Positions 468 to 64,000 of a stretch of 64,000 nucleotides of DNA are shown in pieces; the stretch's first letter is position 1; each line of letters opens with the position of its first letter. The stretch is from assembly GCA_021820465.1 (NCBI GenBank), contig JAKADP010000006.1, positions 425-64,424 on the forward strand, in the 5' to 3' direction. Under the pieces are notes generated by a model. It was not told where the DNA came from. It saw only the letters and a list, made by a program, of their open reading frames with translations, and ran no database searches. The position numbers were made by a program, and so were the translations under genes. This DNA comes from Bacillota bacterium. GTDB taxonomy: Bacteria; Bacillota; Sulfobacillia; Sulfobacillales; JAIMBI01.

Positions 468-1304
468 CTAGAGCCCGAGCAGGTGCTCCAGCGCGGGCAG
501 ACCCTGCTGCACGGTGCCATAGCTGGAGAGGGGAGCCGCTGTCGTCGGGCCCGCCGCCATCACCTGCCCATCGGTGTTGATGAGCCAGTACGCGGGGTTG
601 AGCCCAGACACTTTAATGAGGATGAGGCGGCCGCCGGTCAGCGGGCTTAGCCCCGGCGCGTAGTGGATCGGGACGGCGGGCGCGGAAAAGCCCGGGAAGC
701 TGCCGGACGGGAGCGCCACGAACGACAGCTGGGGCGGAGACCCGCGCCGCATCAGCGTCAGCACGGACGCCCATGACGGCCCCTGTCCCGCCAGCTTGCC
801 CGCCGTGACCGGCCACCAGGCTGTCTGCTCGACGGCCGGGGTGAGGATCGCGCTGGCGCTGGGCAGCACCACCTCCTCCAGGGGGGCGGCACTTCCGCTC
901 ATGTTCCACACCAGCACAGCGGTGTCCCCATTGGCCAGACGCCCCGCCATCAGGCCCATCATGGTGTTGGGGGCCAGCCCCGTGGGCCGGTAGGCGGCGG
1001 CAATCTTAGCGTTCGGCAGTTCGGTGGCCATCGGCACCGCCGCCGCCACCGCCGCGGGGGGGGAGCCGCTGGCCGCGCTGAGCGGCGCCAGCGGGCGATT
1101 CAGCAGCGCGTAGGCCCCGCCCACCAACAGCGCCACGGCGGCGGCTGCCACGCCCGCCGTGAATCCCCAGCCGCCCCGCTGCCGCCGCCGATAGTAGCGG
1201 TCCAGTCCGTCAGCCAGCGCCATCAGCTGGCGCTGTTCCTCGGGATCCGACACCTCTTCGTCCACGGCCGCCCGCACGTCGGCCAACCGATCGTCTTCTG
1301 CCAT
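468..1304 (-). CDS. single-pass membrane protein of unknown function (anti-sigma-like topology)
   Basis: Acidic N-terminus (MAEDDRLADV...), basic stretch RRRQRGGW, one hydrophobic helix (FTAGVAAAAVALLVGGAYALL), then an extracytoplasmic domain of about 200 aa. The start could be 1304 (ATG) or 1331. Confidence 0.5.
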   Translation of the reverse strand: MAEDDRLADVRAAVDEEVSDPEEQRQLMALADGLDRYYRRRQRGGWGFTAGVAAAAVALLVGGAYALLNRPLAPLSAASGSPPAAVAAAVPMATELPNAKIAAAYRPTGLAPNTMMGLMAGRLANGDTAVLVWNMSGSAAPLEEVVLPSASAILTPAVEQTAWWPVTAGKLAGQGPSWASVLTLMRRGSPPQLSFVALPSGSFPGFSAPAVPIHYAPGLSPLTGGRLILIKVSGLNPAYWLINTDGQVMAAGPTTAAPLSSYGTVQQGLPALEHLLGL

Positions 1305-1417
1305 TGCCCATCGCCTCGCTTCCGGGCTCACGGGACCCGAGGGGCCGTGGCCTGTTTGCTAGGGTGTGTCGCTCGCCGCGGGCGATTGTGACACAGCCCG
1401 TTCGGGTTGCGTGCGGC

Positions 1418-2719
1418 TCAGGCCGCGCCCAACAGGGCCGACCAGCCCCACAGCGCCAGCAGGGTCACCAGCAGGACCGGCACCGTGAGCGTGACGCCCA
1501 CGCGAAAGTAATAGCCCCACGTGATGCGAATGCCGCGCCGGCTCAGGACGTGCAGCCACAGCAGCGTGGCGAGCGACCCGATGGGCGTAAACTTGGGGCC
1601 TAAGTCGCAGCCCACCACATTGGCATACGCCATCGCCGTTTGCATCACCGAGTGGGCGGCCGCGTCGTGAATCGCCAGCGCGTTGATGAGCACCGAGGGC
1701 ATATTGTTCATCACGGACGACAGGACAGCCCCCACCACCCCGGTGCCGACGATCCCGACGAGGGCGCCCTGGGCCGTGAGCGCTGTCAGCGCATGGGCCA
1801 GGAGGTGCGTGAGCCCTACGTTGCGGAGCCCAAAAACCACCACGTACATCCCGATGGAGAACACGACGATGCGCCACGGCGCCTCGCGCACCAACGTGGG
1901 GATGTTGACCGCCGGACTGCGGTGGGCCACTACGAGGAGGCAGATGGCGGCGGCTCCTGCAAAGGCGGCCACGGGCCATGCCAGAAGCTGGCTGGCGAAG
2001 TAGCCCACCAGCAAGAGGGCCAGCACCACCCAAGCCACGCGGAACACCTGCGGGTCCTTGAGCGCGCTCTCCGGGGCGGCGAGCGTGTCTGTGCTGACCG
2101 CGACGGGCAGCGTGCGCCGGTAGAACAGATACAGCACCGCGAGGCTCGCCACCAGGGACACCAGGTCCACGGGCACCATCCGGAGCGCGTAGGAGGCAAA
2201 CCCCAGGTGAAAGTAGCCCGCCGACACAATGTTCACCAAGTTGGACACCACCAGCGGCAGCGACGTCGTGTCCGCGATGAAGCCACTCGTCATGATGAGC
2301 GCCAGCGTAGCCTTGGGCTCCAGCTTTAGGGCCTTGGCCTGTTCGTATACGATGGGCGTGAGGATTAAGGCCGCGCCGTCATTGGCGAAAAACATGGCCA
2401 CCAGCGCGCCCAGCACGCCCAGCAGCAGAAACAGGCGCAGGCCGCGGCCCCGGGCCAGGCGCAGCATGTGGAGTGCCGACCACTCGAAGAAGCCCACCGC
2501 GTCCAGAATCAACGAGATGAGAATCACAGCCACAAAGGTCAGCGTGGCGTCCCAGACAATGCCCACCACGGTGCCCACGTTGGCCCACGACACGATCCCC
2601 AGCAGCAGCGCCACGGCGGCGCCGCCGGCAGCGGTCCACCCGATGGACAAGCCGCGGGGCTGCGCGATGATCAGGGCCAGCACCAAGATAAAGAGACCCA
2701 GGGCCAACGCCACCGCCAT
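1418..2719 (-). CDS. arsB: arsenite efflux permease ArsB (ArsB/NhaD superfamily)
   Basis: 433-aa polytopic protein. It carries GFFEWSALH and FANDGAALILTPIV, which closely match the classical ArsB N-terminal region. It lies directly downstream of arsR. Confidence 0.9.
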   Translation of the reverse strand: MAVALALGLFILVLALIIAQPRGLSIGWTAAGGAAVALLLGIVSWANVGTVVGIVWDATLTFVAVILISLILDAVGFFEWSALHMLRLARGRGLRLFLLLGVLGALVAMFFANDGAALILTPIVYEQAKALKLEPKATLALIMTSGFIADTTSLPLVVSNLVNIVSAGYFHLGFASYALRMVPVDLVSLVASLAVLYLFYRRTLPVAVSTDTLAAPESALKDPQVFRVAWVVLALLLVGYFASQLLAWPVAAFAGAAAICLLVVAHRSPAVNIPTLVREAPWRIVVFSIGMYVVVFGLRNVGLTHLLAHALTALTAQGALVGIVGTGVVGAVLSSVMNNMPSVLINALAIHDAAAHSVMQTAMAYANVVGCDLGPKFTPIGSLATLLWLHVLSRRGIRITWGYYFRVGVTLTVPVLLVTLLALWGWSALLGAA

Positions 2720-2734
2720 CCCGCATCGACCCCT

Positions 2735-3097
2735 TTAGTTTGTTGGCCGCACGGGATCCGACGCCGAGGTCAGGCCGCACGCGGCGTCTGCATGATGGGT
2801 GCTCAGCCAGGCCGCATCCCCGGGATCCACCGGCACGTCGGCCAGCCAGCGGCGCACATGCGTGGGCAGGTCCGGCCTCAGGCGATAAAACATCCAGGAT
2901 TTCTGCCGGTATTCCACCACGAGGCCCGCCTGCTTTAAGCGGCGCAAGTGCTGGGACACCGCCGGCTGGCTCACCGGCAGCACCGCCGCCAGCTCACACA
3001 CGCACGCATCCCGGATGGCAAGCAGCATTAGGATGCGCAGTCGTGTGGCATCGCCCAACACCCGAAACTGCTCGGCCCACTCGCCGTACATGGGCAC
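2735..3097 (-). CDS. arsR: ArsR/SmtB-family metalloregulator
   Basis: 120 aa. It has the CVCEL metal-site motif followed by the HTH LPVSQPAVSQHLRRLKQAGLV, and sits 15 nt upstream of arsB. Confidence 0.85.
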   Translation of the reverse strand: MPMYGEWAEQFRVLGDATRLRILMLLAIRDACVCELAAVLPVSQPAVSQHLRRLKQAGLVVEYRQKSWMFYRLRPDLPTHVRRWLADVPVDPGDAAWLSTHHADAACGLTSASDPVRPTN

Positions 3098-43196: not shown

Positions 43197-43272
43197 GCGC
43201 CCGTAGCTCAGTGGATAGAGCAGAGGTTTCCTAAACCTCGTGTCGGCGGTTCGATTCCGTCCGGGCGCACCA
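43197..43272 (+). tRNA. tRNA-Arg (anticodon CCU), CCA encoded
   Basis: Cloverleaf folded by hand: acceptor GCGCCCG/CGGGCGC, D-arm GCUC-AGUGGAUA-GAGC, anticodon arm GAGGU-UUCCUAA-ACCUC, T-arm GGCGG-UUCGAUU-CCGUC, then ACCA. Confidence 0.9.
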
Positions 43273-53788: not shown

Positions 53789-55288
53789 ATGAGCGATCCC
53801 ACGCCAACGGTCCCGCACTTTATCAACGGGGAGACGCAGATGGGTGAGGCGGCGCGGTTTGCCCCCGTCTATAATCCGGCCACGGGGCAGGTTACGCACC
53901 GCGTCCCTCTGGGGTCAGGGGGCGTCGAGGCCGCGGTGGCGGCGGCGCGCGCGGCCTACCCGGCCTGGCGCGCCACGCCGCTCGCCCGCCGCACCGCCAT
54001 CTTGTTTCAGATCCGCGATCGGTTGGCGTCCCATCAGCAGGAGATTGCGCGCATCATCACGGCCCAGCACGGCAAGGTGCTGGCGGATGCCATGGGCGAA
54101 GTGGCCCGCGGTCTCGAAAACGTCGAGTTTGCGTGTGGCATCCCGCAGCTGCTCAAGGGTGAATACAGCGAGCAGGCGTCCACTGATGTGGATGTGTATT
54201 CCATCCGCCAGCCGCTGGGCGTGGTGGTGGGGGTCAGTCCGTTCAATTTTCCCGCCATGGTGCCGCTTTGGATGATGGCCAACGGCATCGCGTGCGGCAA
54301 CACGTTTGTCTTGAAGCCCTCCGAGAAAGATCCGTCGGCGTCTGTGCTGATCGCCCAGCTGATGACTGAGGCTGGGCTGCCTCCGGGGGTGCTGAATGTG
54401 GTGCAGGGGGATCGCGAGGCGGTGGAGGCGCTGGTGGGCCATCCGGACGTGGCGGCCGTGTCGGTGGTGGGGTCCACGCCGGTGGCGCGGGCCATCCGCC
54501 GCGCGGCCGTGGCGGCCGACAAGCGAGTGCAGGCACTGGGCGGGGCTAAGAACCACCTGGTGGTGCTGGCGGACGCGGATCTGGGTGCGGCCGCCGACGG
54601 TGCGGTGTCGGCGGCCTACGGGTCGGCCGGCGAGCGGTGCATGGCGGTGTCGGTGGTCGTCGCCGTGGAGGAGGTGGCCGATGAATTGGTGGCCGCCATC
54701 ACCCAACGCATGGCGGCGCTGGTGATTGGGGATGGCATGGATCCCGCGTCCGACATGGGGCCTCTGGTCACTCGCGAACACCGCGACCGCGTGGCCGGGT
54801 ATGTGGAGTCCGCGCAGCGCGAGGGCGCTGCGCTGGTTGTGGATGGCCGGTCCGCGCCCGTGACCTCATCCCCGGGATTCTTTCTGGGCGCCACGCTGCT
54901 GGACCACGTGACGCCCGAGATGGCGTGCTATCGCGATGAGATATTCGGGCCTGTCCTGTCGGTCGTGCGAGTGGCGTCTGCAGACGACGCGCTCCAGCTG
55001 GTGAACGACAACCCTTGGGGCAACGGGGTGGCACTGTACACGCGGGACGGCGGGGCGGCGCGGCGGTTCCAGTTCGAGGTGCTGTGCGGCATGGTCGGCA
55101 TCAATGTGCCCATTCCTGTCCCCGTGGGCTACCACTCATTTGGCGGCTGGAAGGCCTCGCTGTTTGGCGAGACGCACATGTACGGCCCCGACAGCGTCAA
55201 CTTCTACACGCGCCGCAAGGTGGTCACCAGCCGCTGGCCATCGGCCACGCCCGCCGGCGTGGACCTGCGGTTCCCCGGGGCGCCATGA
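53789..55288 (+). CDS. mmsA: CoA-acylating methylmalonate/malonate-semialdehyde dehydrogenase
   Basis: 499-aa ALDH. HFINGE N-terminus, FVLKPSEKDP, GERCMA catalytic Cys, and the family-typical C-terminus FYTRRKVVTSRW. Confidence 0.9.
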   Translation: MSDPTPTVPHFINGETQMGEAARFAPVYNPATGQVTHRVPLGSGGVEAAVAAARAAYPAWRATPLARRTAILFQIRDRLASHQQEIARIITAQHGKVLADAMGEVARGLENVEFACGIPQLLKGEYSEQASTDVDVYSIRQPLGVVVGVSPFNFPAMVPLWMMANGIACGNTFVLKPSEKDPSASVLIAQLMTEAGLPPGVLNVVQGDREAVEALVGHPDVAAVSVVGSTPVARAIRRAAVAADKRVQALGGAKNHLVVLADADLGAAADGAVSAAYGSAGERCMAVSVVVAVEEVADELVAAITQRMAALVIGDGMDPASDMGPLVTREHRDRVAGYVESAQREGAALVVDGRSAPVTSSPGFFLGATLLDHVTPEMACYRDEIFGPVLSVVRVASADDALQLVNDNPWGNGVALYTRDGGAARRFQFEVLCGMVGINVPIPVPVGYHSFGGWKASLFGETHMYGPDSVNFYTRRKVVTSRWPSATPAGVDLRFPGAP

Positions 55289-55538
55289 TTCGAGTTCGTT
55301 AGGGACACTTTAGCGTGTGTCCGCCTGTGCCGGTGAGCGTCAAGAACGGAGACGGCGACAGGAATCACGCGTCCGCGGTGCGCGTGCACACCTCCGTGGC
55401 GAGCGCTAGGATCTGGGCGCGCGAGGTAAAGGGCGATTCCCAACTCGCTTGCATGACGAGATGCGCCTAAGGGTATATCATTGTTGGGAGGCTCCCTTGG
55501 GGAGGAGCCTAGGACGTCCTACACCGAGGTGATTGTGA

Positions 55539-55754
55539 GTGGACATCCGGATTATCCTAGAGCGTCATGAAGATGGATACGTCGCGTATCCCATTGGGAT
55601 TTGGGGCGTCATCATCGGGCAAGGGGACACAGCGGAAGAAGCCATGGCCGATGTCATGAGCGCCATAAAATTCCATGCGGAAACGTTTGGAGAAGCATCC
55701 TTGTGGTCGGACGACCGAGTGTTGCAGGTCGAACTGCGGGAAGCCCGCGTGTGA
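55539..55754 (+). CDS. hicB: HicB-family antitoxin-like protein (N-domain only)
   Basis: 71 aa. ERHEDGYVAYPIGIWGVIIGQGDTAEEAMADVMSAIKFH fits the HicB/UPF0150 fold signature. GAGGTG precedes GTG 55539. Confidence 0.7.
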   Translation: MDIRIILERHEDGYVAYPIGIWGVIIGQGDTAEEAMADVMSAIKFHAETFGEASLWSDDRVLQVELREARV

Positions 55755-55763
55755 TCATCTTAC

Positions 55764-56006
55764 CTACGCATCCCGAAGCGCCTCGAGAAATTCCTGGCGG
55801 GTTATCCCCGCTTGCCGGATAGCGGTCCGCAGCGTAGAGCCCTTGATAGTGGAATGGTTGGGAAGCGTCATGAGGGAGCGAGTTCCGTCGGAATTTTGCC
55901 TCTGCAAGGCAAGATGTGGCCCTGAACGGACTTCCACAAAGCCCAACACCCCCAAAGCCTTCAGGACGTCCCGGATGGGAGCATCTTTCGGAAATGCCGC
56001 GTTCAT
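55764..56006 (-). CDS. hicA: HicA-family mRNA interferase toxin
   Basis: 80 aa. IRDVLKALGVLGFVEVRSGPHLAL...TLPNHSTIKGSTLRTAIRQAGITRQEF matches the HicA pattern. ATG 56006 lies 10 nt after GAGGAG. Confidence 0.75.
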   Translation of the reverse strand: MNAAFPKDAPIRDVLKALGVLGFVEVRSGPHLALQRQNSDGTRSLMTLPNHSTIKGSTLRTAIRQAGITRQEFLEALRDA

Positions 56007-56013
56007 GGGTGTA

Positions 56014-56586
56014 TCACTCCTCGGCAAACGGTAGGGTCACGATGAAGCGGGCTAGGCGTTGTGCCTCGCCGGGCGACAAGTCCTCGGGAATTTGTAACGT
56101 GGCATCGAGTCCGGGTCTGACGGGAAAATTAATGGCGACGATGCGAATGCCCGTGGCTGCCCTGGGAGAATCGGCGATAGGTTGACTCGCGCGATGTCGG
56201 CTGGCGGCCCCTCGGGCCCTGCTTGGGGGCTGAGCAGTTCTGCGGTGAGTGCCTGTGGCGAGGCTGTCCCCGGCCAGCCACCGTAAGTATAGGTCGACGG
56301 CGGCTTTGAATCGTTGCGCATAGGTGTCGATGGTTCGGTCGTTGAATCTGGCGGTTCCGCGGTGCCGGTTGCGGAAGCGAATAGTCAACCCGTCGATGTC
56401 GGCCGTAGCTAGCGCGAGAGCATCCTGCTCACCGTCCAAGACACGGCGGCAAGCGTTTTGGAGAGCGGTAGCTCTGGCCCGCGGAAGCTCGCCCTTCTCG
56501 ATCGCATGGTCAAGGAATGCCCGTAGCCCGGCTACGGTGCCCGAGGAAGCGACGGACACATCGCCGTCCATTATCGGTGGGAGCAC
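56014..56586 (-). CDS. hypothetical protein, 190 aa, immediately upstream of hicA
   Basis: GTG 56586 behind CAGGAGGTG. Its stop lies 7 nt before the hicA ATG, and its last codons supply the hicA SD. The C-terminus reads FPVRPGLDATLQIPEDLSPGEAQRLARFIVTL. No family recognised. Confidence 0.6.
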   Translation of the reverse strand: MLPPIMDGDVSVASSGTVAGLRAFLDHAIEKGELPRARATALQNACRRVLDGEQDALALATADIDGLTIRFRNRHRGTARFNDRTIDTYAQRFKAAVDLYLRWLAGDSLATGTHRRTAQPPSRARGAASRHRASQPIADSPRAATGIRIVAINFPVRPGLDATLQIPEDLSPGEAQRLARFIVTLPFAEE

Positions 56587-56897
56587 TTCGCCACCTCCTG
56601 TACCCTAGAGTCAGGATCCCCGAGTCATCGGCATCATGCCACGATCCTCGGTCCGTATCCAATCGTCCTAATAAAATATTCTGTGCGACCGTCGCAAGTT
56701 ACCTTTTTTGTATGAGCAGCAAGGAGTTCAGCTGGCATCTGTGAGTACCGTCCTGTTAACAGAGTGATCGAGACCTGTCTGGACCGGAACATAGCGGCAA
56801 TGGCTCCGGGTTGTTTTAGGCTGCGCGACGGTCGTGAAACCGTTTCTGGGTAACCGTACGGGTGTGGTGGTGAGCTACGGGGCGGGGGCCCTGGCTA

Positions 56898-58134
56898 GTG
56901 TAGCCATTCCAAGTGTGTGACAGATTGGAGGGGGTGGGGTGCGCTGGGATCGTTCTTCGTGGGAGGTGATCCCGATGCCCCGTCCCCGCACGGTGCCGCG
57001 CTTGACCGTCAGTACCGCGGAGGTGACCTACCTGGACCGGGTGGCCCGTTCCCGCATGGCGCCCGTCTGCACGGTGCCGCGCGCCCGGATTCTCGCGGCG
57101 TATGGGGCTGGCGCCAGCGGCCCGGCGATTGCCGCGACCTGGGCGTGCCCCTGCCGACGGTGATGCGGTGTGTCAAGAAAGCGTTGGCGCTGGGGCCCCG
57201 GCGGGCGCTCGAAGACTTGCCCCGGGCGGGCCGCCCCCCGCGCATTACCGCAGAGACCCGGGCGTGGATCGTGAGCCTCGCGTGCCAAAAGCCCAAGGAT
57301 CTGGGCTGGGCCCCCGAGTGCTGGACCGAGTCCCTGCGCGCCCGCTACGTGCGCGAACACGCCGCGCCGGCCGGCCATCCCTCTGCGGGCCAGATCCAAC
57401 AGGGCACCCTCTCCAAGCTGTTGGCCGCGCAGGACCTGGACCCGCATCGGGTGCGGTACTACCTGCAACGGGAGGACCCCCATTTCGATGCCAAGATGGG
57501 CAGGTCTTGCACGTGTACCAGCAGGTGACCTTTGCCTTCAACCCCGAGGACACCGGCTCGCAGTGCGCTGGTCCTACGACGAAAAGCCGGGGATTCAAGC
57601 GCTACCGGCGATCGCCCGCGAAAGCCCGGGGTCGCCGACCAGGGCAGCTGGGAGCGGGATTATGAGTACCAACGCCTGGGCACCCGCACGCTGCTGGCCG
57701 GCATTGACCTAGCGACGGGCGAGGTGCTGGGGTTGGTGCGGGCCCGGCACCGGAGTCGGGAGTTCGTGGAGTGGGTGCAGGCGCTGGACGCGAAGTACGA
57801 CGCCAAGGTGAAGATCCAGGTGGTGCTGGACAACCATTCCGCCCACACCTCGCAGGAGACCCGACGCTACTTGGCCACCCAGCCCAATCGGTTCGCCTTC
57901 GTGCTTACCCCGGTCCACGCCTCCTGGCTGAACCTGATCATGGTGTTCTTCGCCAAACTGGCCAAGCAGTGCTTGCGGGGGATCCGCGTGGCGTCCGCGG
58001 AGGAACTCGAAACCCGCCTCCAGCAATACCTGGACGGGGTGAACCAGGACCCGGTCCCCTTTCGCTGGCGGTGGCGCTTCGAGTCCGCGGACCCGCCAGA
58101 CTCACAACAGGACGGCAGTTAGAAATGGATCTAC
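56898..58134 (+). mobile_element. IS630-family insertion sequence, transposase decayed
   Basis: Imperfect terminal IRs: GTGTAGCCATTCCAAGTG (left) and the reverse complement of CAGTTAGAAATGGATCTAC (right). Each is flanked by TA (56896-56897 and 58135-58136). The transposase pieces (HTH, RAGRPPRIT, SYDEKPGIQAL, DNHSAH, SWLNLI) are spread over three frames with an in-frame stop at 57529. Confidence 0.75.
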
Positions 58135-58225
58135 TAGGGCGTGCGTGGGTTGGCAAAATTACGGGGGTGCGGAGAGCCGAGAGTCCCATTCCATGCCACA
58201 ATGGCGGGCAAGGGGGTCTTCGCTG

Positions 58226-58684
58226 ATGCAGATCGACATTCCGGGTCGCGCCCCGCTCACGCTCGAGCATGCCGTCTTTGATCTGAACGGCACGCTGTCG
58301 CTGGACGGAGGATTGCTGCCGGGCGTGCAGGAGCGCGCGCGAGCGCTGAGTGGGCAGCTCTCGTGCCTGCTGCTGACCGCCGACACGTTTGGCACCGGGG
58401 AGGCGGTGGCGCGCGCCTTGGGCTTCGCGTTTCAGCGCGTGGCCGATGGCGCCGAGAAGGTGGCGGCCGTCCGGTCGCGGGGCATCCAGCACACCGTGGC
58501 CGTCGGCAACGGCCAAAACGATGTGGGGATGCTGCGGGAGTCAGCGCTCGGCATCGTCGTGTTAGGCCCGGAGGGCACAGCCGTGAGCGCCCTGCAGGCC
58601 GCCACCATCGCGGTGCCTAACATTTGCGTCGCGCTAGACTTGCTGCTGCATCCGGCGCGCCTCATCGCCACCCTCAGGGCGTAG
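58226..58684 (+). CDS. small HAD-superfamily hydrolase (soluble P-type-ATPase-like)
   Basis: 152 aa. FDLNGTL (DxxGT-like motif I) and VGNGQNDVGML (motif III). Confidence 0.7.
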   Translation: MQIDIPGRAPLTLEHAVFDLNGTLSLDGGLLPGVQERARALSGQLSCLLLTADTFGTGEAVARALGFAFQRVADGAEKVAAVRSRGIQHTVAVGNGQNDVGMLRESALGIVVLGPEGTAVSALQAATIAVPNICVALDLLLHPARLIATLRA

Positions 58685-58702
58685 TGGCCCCGCTGGTGCC
58701 GG

Positions 58703-59854
58703 CTAGGGACCTCCCACGGCGTTGGCCCACGCGGGGGTAGTGGGAGCCGCGGCCGTCCGGGCGGCCAGCGGGCTCCAGCTGGGCTGGCCGGCCGGGTTCA
58801 AGGCGAGGCGGTATTCGGTGGTCTGCCGTGGGCGGCCCAAGACGAGCCGCTGGCCGCCCTCCAGCACCACGGTGGTTCGCAGAGGCACGAGGGTGGGCCA
58901 CACGCGGGAGGTCCAATGTAGCCCGCCGTCGGATGTGGCGTACAGCACAAGCTGCAGAGACGTGGCCGACGTCGGAATGGTCACGGGCACCCACACCACC
59001 CCCGTGGGGGACAAGCTGGGCGCGCCTTCCAGGATATTGGTGCTGGCCGCGCTTGGCGGCAGCTGGAGTGCCCGCGCCACCCAGGTGATGCCGCCGTTGG
59101 TGGTGGTCAGGATCCGGGCCGAATCGAAGGCCGGCGTGTTGATGGTCGCGATGCCCGATCCATCCCGGCGGAACGCTATGGCATTGACGTCCTCAAAGAG
59201 CGGGGAGTGCCCGGATGGCGCTTGGGATGCTTGCAGCAGCTGCCAGTGGCGGCCGCCGTCCACGGTGCCCAGCAGGGCATTCATCTGACTCCCGGCAAGG
59301 TCCTGAGATGTGAGGAGCATCCACCCGCGGCGGGCACTCACAAACTGGATTTGGAGAGACCCGCCGGCCACCGAGGATCCCCACGGCGATGCAAGTGGTG
59401 CGGTCCCACGCGTCCAGTGCACGCCGCGGTCGGTCGTTTCGTCAACCGTCACGGCGGTCCCGTGGGGCGGTTCAACGGCCACTACCGCCACGTTGGGGGC
59501 GGGGAACGCTTCCGCCACCGTGGCATCCCCTTGGCCGGCGCTCTGCCCTGATCCGCTGAGCGGTGCGCCCAAGGCCACGCGGGCCAACCCGGGCGGCCCG
59601 CTGCCCACCCACGATGTGCCGCCGCCGCGGGCCTCTACCGAGTTTGCCGGTGGCAGGGCCCACCCGCCTGCCGCTGAACCCGCCGCGATAAATGAGAAGG
59701 CGAGGGGGAGCCGCGGGCGGCGGGTTTCTGTCCTGGGCCGGGGCGGTGCCCCGGATGCCGTCGGGTGCAGCGCGGCGGGCCCGCACCCGGCCAGCAGGGC
59801 CGACGCCATCATCGCCATCATCGCGGCCGTCCGCCGCGGTGCTCCCTGCCCCAA
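58703..59854 (-). CDS. lipoprotein with BNR/Asp-box beta-propeller repeats, third paralog
   Basis: TTG 59854 lies 6 nt after GGAGG. Signal MGQGAPRRTAAMMAMMASALLAGC. Boxes TTDRGVHW, TVDGGRHW, TTNGGITW, TSDGGLHW. Confidence 0.7.
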   Translation of the reverse strand: MGQGAPRRTAAMMAMMASALLAGCGPAALHPTASGAPPRPRTETRRPRLPLAFSFIAAGSAAGGWALPPANSVEARGGGTSWVGSGPPGLARVALGAPLSGSGQSAGQGDATVAEAFPAPNVAVVAVEPPHGTAVTVDETTDRGVHWTRGTAPLASPWGSSVAGGSLQIQFVSARRGWMLLTSQDLAGSQMNALLGTVDGGRHWQLLQASQAPSGHSPLFEDVNAIAFRRDGSGIATINTPAFDSARILTTTNGGITWVARALQLPPSAASTNILEGAPSLSPTGVVWVPVTIPTSATSLQLVLYATSDGGLHWTSRVWPTLVPLRTTVVLEGGQRLVLGRPRQTTEYRLALNPAGQPSWSPLAARTAAAPTTPAWANAVGGP

Positions 59855-60784: not shown

Positions 60785-60826
60785 CGTGTCGATATTGAGA
60801 GTGGGAGGCCTCGTCCCGCGACGCGG

Positions 60827-61311
60827 TTAGGAATCGGACGGGGATTGAAGGTCTTCCATCTCGACCTGGCGTGAATACGGGAACGGTTGCCGGACGAGAA
60901 CGCCCTCAACCTCATGGCCCAAGGGAAAGCCCTTGTCCCATGTCATTAAGTACTGGCACTTAGCTCGAATCGCGGACGCTATATGAATCGCATCGGGTCC
61001 CCGTAGTCCTCGCAGGCGTGAAAGTTTGCGGGCATGGCGGGCTACCGGTAGATCTACCTCTACCCAGTGGATAAATTTATGATGGAAGAAGGCGTCGACC
61101 ATCAAGTCGACCCGTGCCATGTCTTTAGACGAACGGACATCACCGTGGCCGCAGACCTCCGCATAAACCAGGGTGCTCGCGACAATGGCATAATGGCCTT
61201 GCTCGGCGCCCTCGAGAAGACGCCGAGCTACGTCGGCCTACCTGCTTCTCCCTTGATCACTGCTAAGTAGACGTTGGAATCCAGGTAAATGGGACCCGCT
61301 CCCTCATTCAT
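60827..61311 (-). pseudogene. PIN-domain (VapC-like) nuclease gene with a frameshift
   Basis: MNEGAGPIYLDSNVYLAVIKGEAGRP stops at 61228-61230. The next frame, open from 61237, continues with VARRLLEGAEQGHYAIVASTLVYAEV...GPDAIHIASAI...YLMTWDKGF. All four PIN acidic positions are visible. Confidence 0.7.
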
Positions 61312-62224
61312 TTCGGACCCACCGGATGTACTCGTCCGTTGACATCGAGCCTGTATACCAAGGCGCAATGCCGACCAAGTCAGCTACCGACGGCCCGTCT
61401 GATTCATCTGGGAGTCGTTCCAGCTGATCTACGTCCACGCTTAGGATCTGTCCCCGTCGGTTGCGCGTGACGGTGCCGAGTGCGCGGACGCGGTGGCCCA
61501 ATGCATCGCGGATCTCGTCGAGATGCTCCTTCGGGAACCGGCAGTTCACGGCGCGACGTGTCTCTTCGTCGTAGAGGCTTACGTGGCGCCCGCGTCGCAG
61601 GTTGATGATGTCCAACACCCCGACGGCTGAGCCAACTGTTTGCTCCACTGCCTCAATCGAGGCGCGTGCGTTGGCCACTACCGAGCCTGTGACCGGCTCT
61701 GGCTGGTCTGACAGGGCCGCGTTCGGAACGCGATAGCTAATGCCGCTGATGCCTTCTTGGAGGAAGTATTTACCTATTTTCACCAAGTGACCCGCAAGGG
61801 TCGGCGAAAAGAAGCGGGGCAGTTCCTCTGCCTCACGTAACTGGCGAATCCCATCCACTAGTCGCTGTGGCGTCTCCCCGCTAGCTACTCCTTCACGTCG
61901 TAGCACGGCGACGGCACTGCCGCTGCGAAGATCTTCGATGAGCCACTGGCTCGGAGGTGACTGAAGCGCCCGGTCAAGCTCGTCGAGCATTTGAAGGCTC
62001 GTCCGTAGAACGTCCAAGAATGCTCGTGCGGGGATGGCGCCGACACTTCCTTCCACTCGAACTTCCAGACGCGACTCAGGCACCTTGACCCCCTCTTCCA
62101 GCGCAACCTCTCCGGCTATTTTACGAAGAATTTGCGGGCAATGCGATGGGGGCATCAGCGGCGTCTCCCTCACCGCCATCGTCGCCATCATCGCGGCCGT
62201 CCGCCGCGGTGCTCCCTGCCCCAA
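61304..62224 (-). CDS. hypothetical protein (306 aa; 283 aa from its own ATG 62155), upstream partner of the PIN gene
   Basis: Intact ORF. The first 17 codons belong to repeat copy B and copy the lipoprotein signal start. An internal ATG at 62155 has its own GAGGGAGA SD. The stop overlaps the PIN ATG (ATGAATGA). No family recognised. Confidence 0.6.
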   Translation of the reverse strand: MGQGAPRRTAAMMATMAVRETPLMPPSHCPQILRKIAGEVALEEGVKVPESRLEVRVEGSVGAIPARAFLDVLRTSLQMLDELDRALQSPPSQWLIEDLRSGSAVAVLRREGVASGETPQRLVDGIRQLREAEELPRFFSPTLAGHLVKIGKYFLQEGISGISYRVPNAALSDQPEPVTGSVVANARASIEAVEQTVGSAVGVLDIINLRRGRHVSLYDEETRRAVNCRFPKEHLDEIRDALGHRVRALGTVTRNRRGQILSVDVDQLERLPDESDGPSVADLVGIAPWYTGSMSTDEYIRWVRNE

Positions 62225-62520: not shown

Positions 62521-62699
62521 AGGGCATCCGTGGGGCCGTAGGGCACCGGGCCGCAGCGATTCGGGCCATAGAATCCGCGGCGAGGCGAAAGCCAGCGCCA
62601 GAGGCCAAACGCCGCGGCCAAGATGACAATCCACCCGATCGGCCAGAACAACCACCATCCACCTGACCATCCACCTGACCATCCCCCGTATCCTGGCAT
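62439..62699 (-). CDS. SHOCT-domain small membrane protein
   Basis: 86 aa. Gly/Trp-rich N-terminus GGWSGGWSGGWW, one TM helix, and C-terminal ILEARLARGEIDPAEFDRL (SHOCT motif). Confidence 0.7.
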   Translation of the reverse strand: MPGYGGWSGGWSGGWWLFWPIGWIVILAAAFGLWRWLSPRRGFYGPNRCGPVPYGPTDALAILEARLARGEIDPAEFDRLSQHLKR

Positions 62700-63229
62700 C
62701 TTCCGTCCACTCCCTTGCGCATCTCATGTCTGGTACTGCGGGACCGCTACTGCCGCGGCTCGCGGACCGCCCCGCCATGATTTCACCGCGGGCCGCCGTG
62801 GCATGCCCCGTGGGGTCGGCGGCCATGGCACTGTCAGCATACGGAGGCCGACGAAGTCGCCGGTGGACGTGCCCTGTGCACACGGTGGGGATTTTGCCGC
62901 GGCGATGTGGCGATCGTGTGGAGGCGCCTGCGGGTGGCTGCCGACGTGCCCGCGTCGGCCATCCTGCCCCCGCGCGCGGCAGCAGGGCCTTGGCCGCTTC
63001 GCGCGGCGGTCGCCGCGGATTCTCATGGCCGCCTCAGCGCGGCCGAGTATACTATCGCGGACGAGATCGGCTTCGGAGGGTGGGGGTGCGACGTCTGGTG
63101 CCCGCGTGGCGTTAATCGGGGGAAGGCAGGCGCGCCTCCCACGCGGAGGCTCTGGACACCGTGGCCGCGCCGCAGGACGTTGGCGGAAGGGTGGGGGGAA
63201 CCGTGCAAGGTGCACTGGTTGGGGTGTCC

Positions 63230-64000
63230 ATGCTTTACTTATTGGTTTGCATTCCATACGCCATGCGCGTGTACGCGTTTGTCATCCTGGCGCTTCGCAC
63301 CGACGGTACCTCCGCGGTAGGGGGGCAGAACACCCGCGCCGCGATCTGGGGCCCCGCCAGCGTCACGGTGATCATCCCGGGCCGCAACGAAGCGCGGGTG
63401 CTGCCCGCCACCGTGCGTGCGGCGCTCGCGCAGGTCCTGCCGCCCTTCATTGGCCGCTACGAGGTATTGGTCGTGAACGACGGCTCCACGGACGACACCG
63501 GGTCGGTGCTGGACCACCTAGCCCAGGAGGCGCGCGGGCGCTTGCGCGTTATCCACCGCCCGGTGGCGCAGGGCAAGGCGTCGGCGCTGAACGAAGCCGT
63601 GAGGCAGGCGCGGGGGGACGTCCTGGTATTCATTGACGCGGACCATGTGCTGCGCCCCGACGCCGTGGCACGGCTGGCCGAGCCCCTGATCTCGGGAGCG
63701 GCCCACGTCGTCCAGGGCCGCTGCGTGGTGAGAAACCCTCACGTGAACCTGCTCACGCGTCTGGTCGAAATTGACAACACGGTGAGCTATGCGGTGGACT
63801 TGGCGGCCCGCTCCCAGTTGGGCACGTGCCCCATCACGGGATCCACCATGGCGATGACGCGGGTGGTGTGGGCACGTGTAGGGGGCTTCTGTGAGGATCG
63901 GCCGGGCGAGGACACCGACATGAGTCTTCGGATTATGCGCGAGGGGCTCCGCGTGCGCTATGAGCCCGACGCCGTCTCCGAGGACTTGGCCCCGGCCACG
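63230..64000 (+). CDS. family-2 glycosyltransferase (membrane-anchored, PgaC/cellulose-synthase-like), partial at the window end
   Basis: Not in the ORF track because it runs off the window. N-terminal TM, VIIPGRNE, VVNDGSTDDT, FIDADH (DxD). The start is ATG 63230 or GTG 63203. Confidence 0.75.
   Translation, partial: MLYLLVCIPYAMRVYAFVILALRTDGTSAVGGQNTRAAIWGPASVTVIIPGRNEARVLPATVRAALAQVLPPFIGRYEVLVVNDGSTDDTGSVLDHLAQEARGRLRVIHRPVAQGKASALNEAVRQARGDVLVFIDADHVLRPDAVARLAEPLISGAAHVVQGRCVVRNPHVNLLTRLVEIDNTVSYAVDLAARSQLGTCPITGSTMAMTRVVWARVGGFCEDRPGEDTDMSLRIMREGLRVRYEPDAVSEDLAPAT

Follow-up and report, generated by a model that had tools for sequence, protein, structure and literature searches.

A 64,000-nucleotide (nt) stretch of the Bacillota bacterium contig JAKADP010000006.1 (forward-strand positions 425 to 64,424; "the window" below means this whole stretch) possesses a compact three-gene toxin–antitoxin (TA) cassette. 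A gene encoding a 190-amino-acid (aa) protein, which we call Fam, is followed on the same strand by a gene for a predicted HicA toxin, and a small HicB-type antitoxin gene faces hicA from the opposite strand (Table 1). Gene content, layout, conservation and independent recurrence of this arrangement are observed directly; since unrelated genomes share the layout, it seems to be a known TA system wired in a new way rather than an accident. Comparison of a few independent loci leads us to favour, tentatively and with somewhat less than even confidence in the reading as a whole, a three-gene HicA module derived from an ordinary class 2 hicB–hicA pair, in which hicA would have been flipped and set directly behind fam. 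The components are known (HicA, a class 2 HicB and a member of a PHROG family), and their combination and orientation are new relative to the 14 genomic contexts catalogued for HicA, so the cassette is best regarded as a variant HicAB system that has a third, candidate component.

Table 1. Features of the cassette and its immediate borders (window positions).
Feature	Position	Strand	Description
hicB promoter-like site, candidate	55453..55481	+	ATGACG-17-TATCAT, sigma-70-like, found by consensus scan
Palindrome TAGGACGTCCTA, candidate operator	55510..55521		perfect, 12 nt; between promoter-like site and hicB start
hicB	55539..55754	+	71 aa, GTG start; small HicB-type, class 2 type, convergent to hicA
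hicB/hicA stop-to-stop spacer	55755..55763		9 nt; too short for a terminator
hicA	55764..56006	-	80 aa, ATG start; PF07927 match, predicted RNase toxin
fam (phrog_2602 / ECs1184 family)	56014..56586	-	190 aa, GTG start
Palindrome TGCGACGGTCGCA, candidate operator/promoter region of the fam–hicA unit	56684..56696		13 nt; beside an AT-rich stretch
IS630-family insertion sequence flanking the cassette	56736..58127	+	Pfam matches and terminal inverted repeats

Recomputation returned the three open reading frames (ORFs) where an initial annotation, made from the letters of the sequence, had placed them, together with its intervals of 9 nt between the hicB and hicA stops and 7 nt between the fam stop and the hicA ATG. 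The same three genes are predicted by independent gene callers in more than 20 public contigs carrying an identical 190-aa protein, and the cassette proteins do not differ between more than 20 contigs, which stem from several samples. The last two fam codons, GAG GAG, occupy a ribosome-binding-site position 10 nt upstream of the hicA ATG, in agreement with their earlier designation as the hicA Shine–Dalgarno (SD) sequence. An SD and a promoter belonging to hicB itself had also been proposed, and both are now predicted: GAGGTGA lies 6–12 nt upstream of the hicB GTG start, and the sigma-70-like site is located further upstream. The fam start codon is preceded at 7 nt by AGGAGG (56594–56599).

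Several of these signals have counterparts in related loci (designated below by L-numbers). The GGTATATCAT stretch of the hicB promoter-like site is kept in L015, and a similar GGTATCATAAT lies 5′ of hicB in L027; the palindrome TAGGACGTCCTA is mostly kept in L015. The palindrome TGCGACGGTCGCA is found 97–110 nt upstream of the fam start, with a 10-mer of it recurring at 56825–56834, and L027 possesses GACGCGT palindromes at the equivalent position upstream of fam. Lying at expected operator positions 5′ of fam in both the window and L027, these palindromes are candidate operators. A scan of the spacer between the facing stops (55755–55763) yielded no terminator-like site and no hairpin beating shuffled sequence on either strand (z 0.79 and -0.66), and no Rfam families were found in 54000–59000.

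Since hicA (minus strand) and hicB (plus strand) are convergent in the window, the pair cannot be one operon, and the arrangement departs from the canonical type II TA operon, whose genes are adjacent and co-transcribed on one strand. The favoured reading would have hicA made from the fam transcript, with its own SD within the last fam codons, and HicB retained as the remaining protein antitoxin, probably expressed from its own opposite-strand promoter; synthesis of toxin and antitoxin would then be uncoupled. With no terminator between the genes, transcription starting at the fam promoter would produce hicA mRNA and continue antisense into hicB, presumably interfering with its expression. Increased transcription of fam would raise the toxin and lower the antitoxin through convergent or antisense transcription, shifting the balance toward the toxin. 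Fam itself would most likely be a regulatory nucleic-acid-binding component setting the activity of the fam promoter, probably by means of its helical domain and basic linker.

The assignment of toxin and antitoxin in the initial annotation is borne out by homology. HicA matches PF07927 over profile positions 2–58 of 58 with E 8.5e-10, its 39 bits exceeding the cut-off of 27, and is 61% identical to the L027 HicA and 49% identical to a HicA from the canonical locus L012. The conserved histidine following a Gly-rich turn is catalytic in HicA proteins; it is retained in the window (SGPH) and in L027 (RGNH), L012 (EKEH) and the more distant copies described below (GGRH, GGKH or GSKH), and is lost only in the decayed L015 copy. 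The 71-aa HicB gave no Pfam or NCBIfam match at E ≤ 1; it has 29 homologues at 55–90% identity among relatives of 55–98 aa, and those bearing a name are annotated as HicB-family antitoxin or HicB-family nuclease (NCBI, JGI). One of them, P0005 (75 aa, 61% identical), is encoded in L012 directly 5′ of a PF07927 hicA (79 aa) on the same strand with a 1-nt overlap. The copies in L027 and L015 are 66% and 90% identical to the window HicB, respectively.

In its length of 71 aa (class range 60–100 aa) and its lack of a DNA-binding domain, the window HicB corresponds to class 2 hicBA, defined by a small HicB without such a domain (Gerdes 2024, mBio, PMC10865869). The absence of a DNA-binding domain was thus correctly noted in the initial annotation, and is a property of the class rather than a peculiarity of this locus, since it is the rule for class 2 (PMC10865869). 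The window shares with class 2 loci a HicA of about 80 aa, a HicB of about 71 aa without a DNA-binding domain and the hicB–hicA gene order; it differs from them in having an inverted hicA, stops facing each other at 9 nt and an acquired upstream partner gene.

Fam was initially described as unrecognisable. This holds for Pfam and NCBIfam, where the 190-aa protein has no match, and a word-indexed protein search returned only one homologue (P0002, 38% identity). It does not hold beyond that: an exhaustive HMMER search with a two-sequence profile recovered at least 1268 family clusters at E ≤ 1e-3 (643 at E ≤ 1e-10), with members nearly all full-length and 185–230 aa long. The window protein alone matches phrog_2602, a PHROG family of unknown function, at E 0.0036 over residues 14–180, and 86 of the 87 family members compared match it (best E 4.8e-25; P0190 at 4e-31). 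The AlphaFold2 model (predicted local distance difference test, pLDDT, 85.8) consists of an N-terminal helical domain (residues about 9–112, pLDDT above 90), a disordered linker that is basic and rich in Arg, and a beta-hairpin with a helix at the C terminus (149–184). The C-terminal part is confidently modelled and best conserved in the family, where it carries the motif YPFPLRPG..L.LP.DLT..EA.RLa.Fv..LA.

Searches for further hints of function were negative: there was no match among PADLOC defence systems for any of the 87 family members, none for Fam among solved structures searched by sequence, and no fused domain in longer family members. Nothing was found with P0033 in plasmid and phage collections or with alignment A4 in IMG/VR. 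We considered whether the C-terminal domain could be a cryptic HicB-like domain and rejected this on an hhalign probability of 3.4% against a HicB alignment. Identification of Fam as a "long HicB" of class 7 hicBA (Gerdes 2024; 216–233 aa) was rejected as well. Class 7 loci resemble the window in placing a protein of about 200 aa directly 5′ of hicA on the same strand. However, that protein comprises two DUF1902/HicB-like domains, whereas Fam combines a helical N-terminal domain with a beta-beta-alpha C-terminal domain showing no HicB similarity, and the window encodes a separate HicB.

The initial annotation asked whether homologues of the 190-aa protein recurrently precede hicA. They do so in part of the family only, namely in two clades possessing both hicA and hicB; in both, hicA shares the strand of fam and hicB faces the other way, so that transcription from fam would read hicA in sense and hicB in antisense. 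Layout type I (fam, hicA, then convergent hicB) is found in the window, in L027/L028 (P0041), in L038/L039 and, in decayed form, in L015. L027/L028 have gaps of 18 and 12 nt, and their Fam is 38% identical to the window protein, at the HicA and HicB identities of 61% and 66% given above; L038/L039 are syntenic with L027, their contigs ending inside hicA. Layout type II (fam, convergent hicB, then hicA on the fam strand) is found in L001, L016 and L022. In these loci fam either overlaps hicB or is separated from it by no more than 22 nt, hicA and hicB diverge from starts about 48 nt apart, and the proteins (HicA 63 aa, HicB about 78 aa) are at most 36% (HicA) and 33% (HicB) identical to those of type I and L012. 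The type II HicBs touch UPF0150 below threshold only (E 3e-4), and their closest annotated relative belongs to a same-strand hicB–hicA pair of a Gemmatirosa plasmid (L034; 49% identity, 13-nt gap).

In a neighbour-joining tree, whose resolution is poor, the two fam clades are not sisters. Two different HicAB lineages are involved, each with closer relatives in same-strand hicB–hicA order, and the opposite-strand layout therefore has two origins, each of them next to fam. Judged by these relationships, each type is derived from its own class 2 hicBA pair by flipping of one gene. The proposed uncoupling of hicB by an inversion thus stands as history, the nearest relatives being same-strand pairs, and fails as a recent accident, as the layout is kept across 38–66% identity and arose twice. 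The three-component arrangement, another of the initial suggestions, gains support as a conserved and recurrent synteny (L027/L028; L001, L016 and L022). None of the 14 HicA contexts of Gerdes 2024 (PMC10865869) has an opposite-strand layout or a Fam partner. An invertible DNA segment around hicB was considered and rejected for want of convincing inverted repeats flanking hicB in the window, L001, L016 and L022.

Two relatives illustrate how the cassette decays. In L015, identity to the window copies is 90% for hicB and 67% for hicA, and neither conserved His residue survives in the latter; at 762–1376 (minus strand), the C-terminal motif of Fam is joined in frame to HicA through a 1-nt indel with respect to the window sequence, and the N-terminal part of Fam is not recognisable in this frame. 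The contig has a coverage of about 2x, and this fusion may be decay or a sequencing error. In L035 (5001–5333), an intact orphan hicB is accompanied by the last 32 codons of hicA, the remainder of hicA together with fam being replaced by a convergent cassette of DUF4411 and Peptidase_M78 genes; at 90% identity its HicB clusters with the L027 copy, and nucleotide identity over the shared stretch is 91%. In both loci the toxin gene is decayed or lost and the antitoxin kept, which is the order of decay expected if HicB is the antitoxin. We infer that HicB behaves as the antitoxin of HicA and would neutralise it.

The island around the orphan hicB of L035 also encodes a VapBC-like pair and an SNF2 helicase. 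Comparison of L027 (3170–3220) with L035 (4950–5000) places the end of homology at the hicB locus 15 nt 5′ of the hicB start. The L027 motif GGTTACGGACC is present in L035 as its reverse complement, GGTCCGTAAC, adjoining the SD, so that a minor rearrangement may have affected the promoter region of hicB.

Decayed relatives, together with an insertion sequence (IS) at the border of the cassette and its position within a rearranging segment, could suggest that the window locus is itself an inactive remnant, a rearranged TA pair in decay with no current function. We regard this as very improbable: the three window ORFs are intact with good ribosome-binding sites and a retained HicA histidine, their proteins are identical across the >20 contigs, and the triad is intact in L027 at 38–66% identity.

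One member of the family is encoded by a Shiga toxin 2 (Stx2) prophage. A tblastn search with P0190 matched 50 lambdoid phages; in VT2-Sakai (Sp5), the homologue is orf22, or ECs_1184 (ORF23 of Stx2 prophage Sp5), located between cI and N on the cI strand. In phage lambda the interval between cI and N is the slot of rexAB. The alignment of the family with ECs_1184 by hhalign covers the full length (probability 99%, E 6.7e-18). ECs1184 resembles the window Fam in its full-length homology, two-domain build and C-terminal LRP...IP.D(I/L)T..EA.R motif, and differs in its location between cI and N, away from any hicA or hicB, and in an identity of only about 19%; no HicA-like ORF adjoins it in Sp5. 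Mondal et al. (2016) were unable to delete ORF23 (ECs1184) from a K-12 Sp5 lysogen and suggested that stable lysogeny depends on it (PMC5155283). In a 2025 RNA-interactome study ECs1184 fell just below significance and is not a strong RNA binder (PMC7618764). Its slot in the cI operon and its resistance to deletion fit a repressor or antidote-like role.

A 53-aa hydrophobic ORF (VT2-Sap22; L031 5633–5794) is annotated convergent to ECs1184 in VT2-Sakai. RefSeq no longer lists it after re-annotating the Sakai chromosome, and it may be spurious; it might also bear on why ECs1184 is undeletable.

An antidote-like role could also be realised at the protein level, with Fam binding HicA directly, for instance through its C-terminal beta-hairpin and helix, as a second antitoxin, chaperone or adaptor in a three-component system. 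The apparent translational coupling across the 7-nt gap, the L015 indel that brings the Fam C-terminal motif in frame with HicA, the failure to delete ECs1184 from Sp5 lysogens, as expected of an antidote, and the strong conservation and confident modelling of the C-terminal domain are all consistent with this idea. However, that domain has no detectable HicB similarity, most family members have no HicA partner, and L035 lost fam together with the 5′ part of hicA and kept hicB. Moreover, the L015 fusion, on its 2x contig and with a HicA deprived of both His residues, looks like decay or a sequencing error. We consider direct binding quite improbable.

The favoured reading, in which Fam regulates its own promoter and with it hicA, has to be weighed against several observations that speak against it. 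Most fam loci examined have no hicA or hicB nearby (L017, L019, L023–L026, L029, L030, the Stx phages and phage YP3), and Fam must therefore have a function of its own for which HicA is not needed; Fam is a lysogeny-module or mobile-element gene with its own role. The association with hicA comprises two clades and about six non-redundant loci, in a neighbourhood census that is small. Mobile elements are a preferred location of TA genes as well as of fam, so the two become more likely to lie side by side. Co-transcription of fam and hicA in layout type II would need read-through across an antisense gene, hicB being placed between them. No recognised DNA-binding or SecB-like domain appeared in Pfam scans of the family, and fold searches with Fam models gave nothing significant. 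The top Foldseek matches, ranked by highest probability and not by lowest E-value, are integrases at E>1 (probability 0.51 for the whole-protein model; 0.33, with a template modelling (TM) score of 0.50, for the N-domain model). The likeness of the N-terminal domain to core-binding domains of tyrosine recombinases is weak, matches to Pfam Phage_int_SAM_1/5 (4 of 87 members, E about 0.02) and to the integrase family phrog_1 (3 of 87, E about 0.0015) being weak too.

Such observations accord with another explanation, that Fam is a functionally unrelated mobile-element "moron" at a cargo hotspot, HicA and HicB forming a plain two-component pair whose opposite orientation is a neutral rearrangement. 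The gene neighbourhoods illustrate its appeal. In Blastococcus (L026), genes for a resolvase and then a tyrosine integrase precede fam, genes for a small membrane protein and then a DNA methyltransferase follow it, and the neighbourhoods of L021 and L025 are similar; Yersinia phage YP3 has an excisionase, a 430-aa integrase-like gene, fam and gin; and fam has other neighbours in L017, L019, L023, L024, L029 and L030. Thus, fam follows integrases (L021, L026, phage YP3) or cI (Sp5), which are classic moron slots, and its downstream neighbours vary (a membrane protein with a methyltransferase, a serine recombinase, a 412-aa protein and others). Other TA genes are found nearby in L016, L024 and L035, the fam–hicA side of L035 was exchanged for the DUF4411–M78 cassette, and the window cassette is of low GC content and adjoins IS630. 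In L016, a ParE-toxin gene preceded by a gene for an antitoxin-like protein of 84 aa (2497–3026) is located 450 bp from the type II cassette, indicating that TA genes cluster at this locus.

A cargo hotspot, however, leaves unexplained why two independent HicAB lineages have an opposite-strand hicB, a layout absent from the 14 catalogued contexts, and why hicA lies on the fam strand in both of them. The 7-nt and 18-nt gaps between fam and hicA look operonic, and the layout is kept over deep divergence. We accordingly rate the hotspot explanation as rather unlikely, if one to be taken seriously, and retain the regulated three-gene module as the tentative preference. As to the initial proposal that Fam is a new HicA antitoxin or regulator, fam is mostly found without hicA, beside integrases or cI, and it is HicB that persists where hicA decays. 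A regulatory role is plausible.

Three-component type II TA systems such as omega-epsilon-zeta and paaR2-paaA2-parE2 have all genes on one strand in one operon, with a regulator of recognised DNA-binding fold. The window cassette is similar to them in that a third gene 5′ of the toxin could give control that the antitoxin cannot provide. It differs in having the antitoxin on the opposite strand and in the lack of a recognised DNA-binding domain in Fam.

The 1.5-kb cassette has a GC content of 57–62% versus 68–72% in its flanks, one of which is formed by the IS630 element and the other by genes of ordinary metabolism (aldehyde dehydrogenase, peptidase S58 and aminotransferase). The IS630 element is delimited by 22-nt imperfect terminal inverted repeats (56736–56757 and 58106–58127). 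Its transposase is split into two ORFs, with an HTH_32 domain (56917–57528) and a DDE_3 domain (57532–58122), and is either frameshifted or uses programmed frameshifting.

In two independent assemblies, the segment 55520–58294 (hicB, hicA, fam and IS630 plus 165 bp) self-closes over exactly 2775 bp: L009 (MEGAHIT k141) measures 2916 = 2775 + 141 bases and L010 (Logan) 2805 = 2775 + 30. The path joins 55520, the left breakpoint inside the TAGGACGTCCTA palindrome, to 58294, suggesting either a tandem duplication, a circle produced by excision or a variant with a collapsed repeat; in the self-closed form, hicB would be without its native promoter. Elsewhere in the window, a second low-GC stretch (60800–62000; 57–61% versus about 70%) may be another acquired island, and the ORFs in or beside it (61304–62224, minus strand; 62623–63636, plus strand) have no Pfam match. 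The sole tRNA of the window, tRNA-Arg (CCT), is encoded at 43197–43272.

How small HicAB systems whose HicB lacks a DNA-binding domain are regulated was left as an open question by Gerdes 2024 (PMC10865869). Separate, opposed transcription units for toxin and antitoxin, combined with a third gene, would offer a concrete and testable answer for at least one such lineage, and the window layout would add one context to the 14 catalogued for HicA. The finding also links HicA to a large uncharacterised protein family of prophages and mobile elements, one member of which resides in the cI operon of a Shiga-toxin phage, and the small three-gene environmental cassette would provide a simple system for probing the function of this family. 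We further speculate, while considering it unlikely, that the phrog_2602/ECs1184 family constitutes a new class of regulator or antidote restraining toxic functions of mobile elements, and that the window locus is a new TA switch in which toxin expression is dictated by the Fam promoter and the antitoxin is encoded antisense to the unit transcribed from it, a single promoter making the toxin and silencing the antitoxin. If this were true, the same activity would explain why ECs1184 is undeletable in Sp5.

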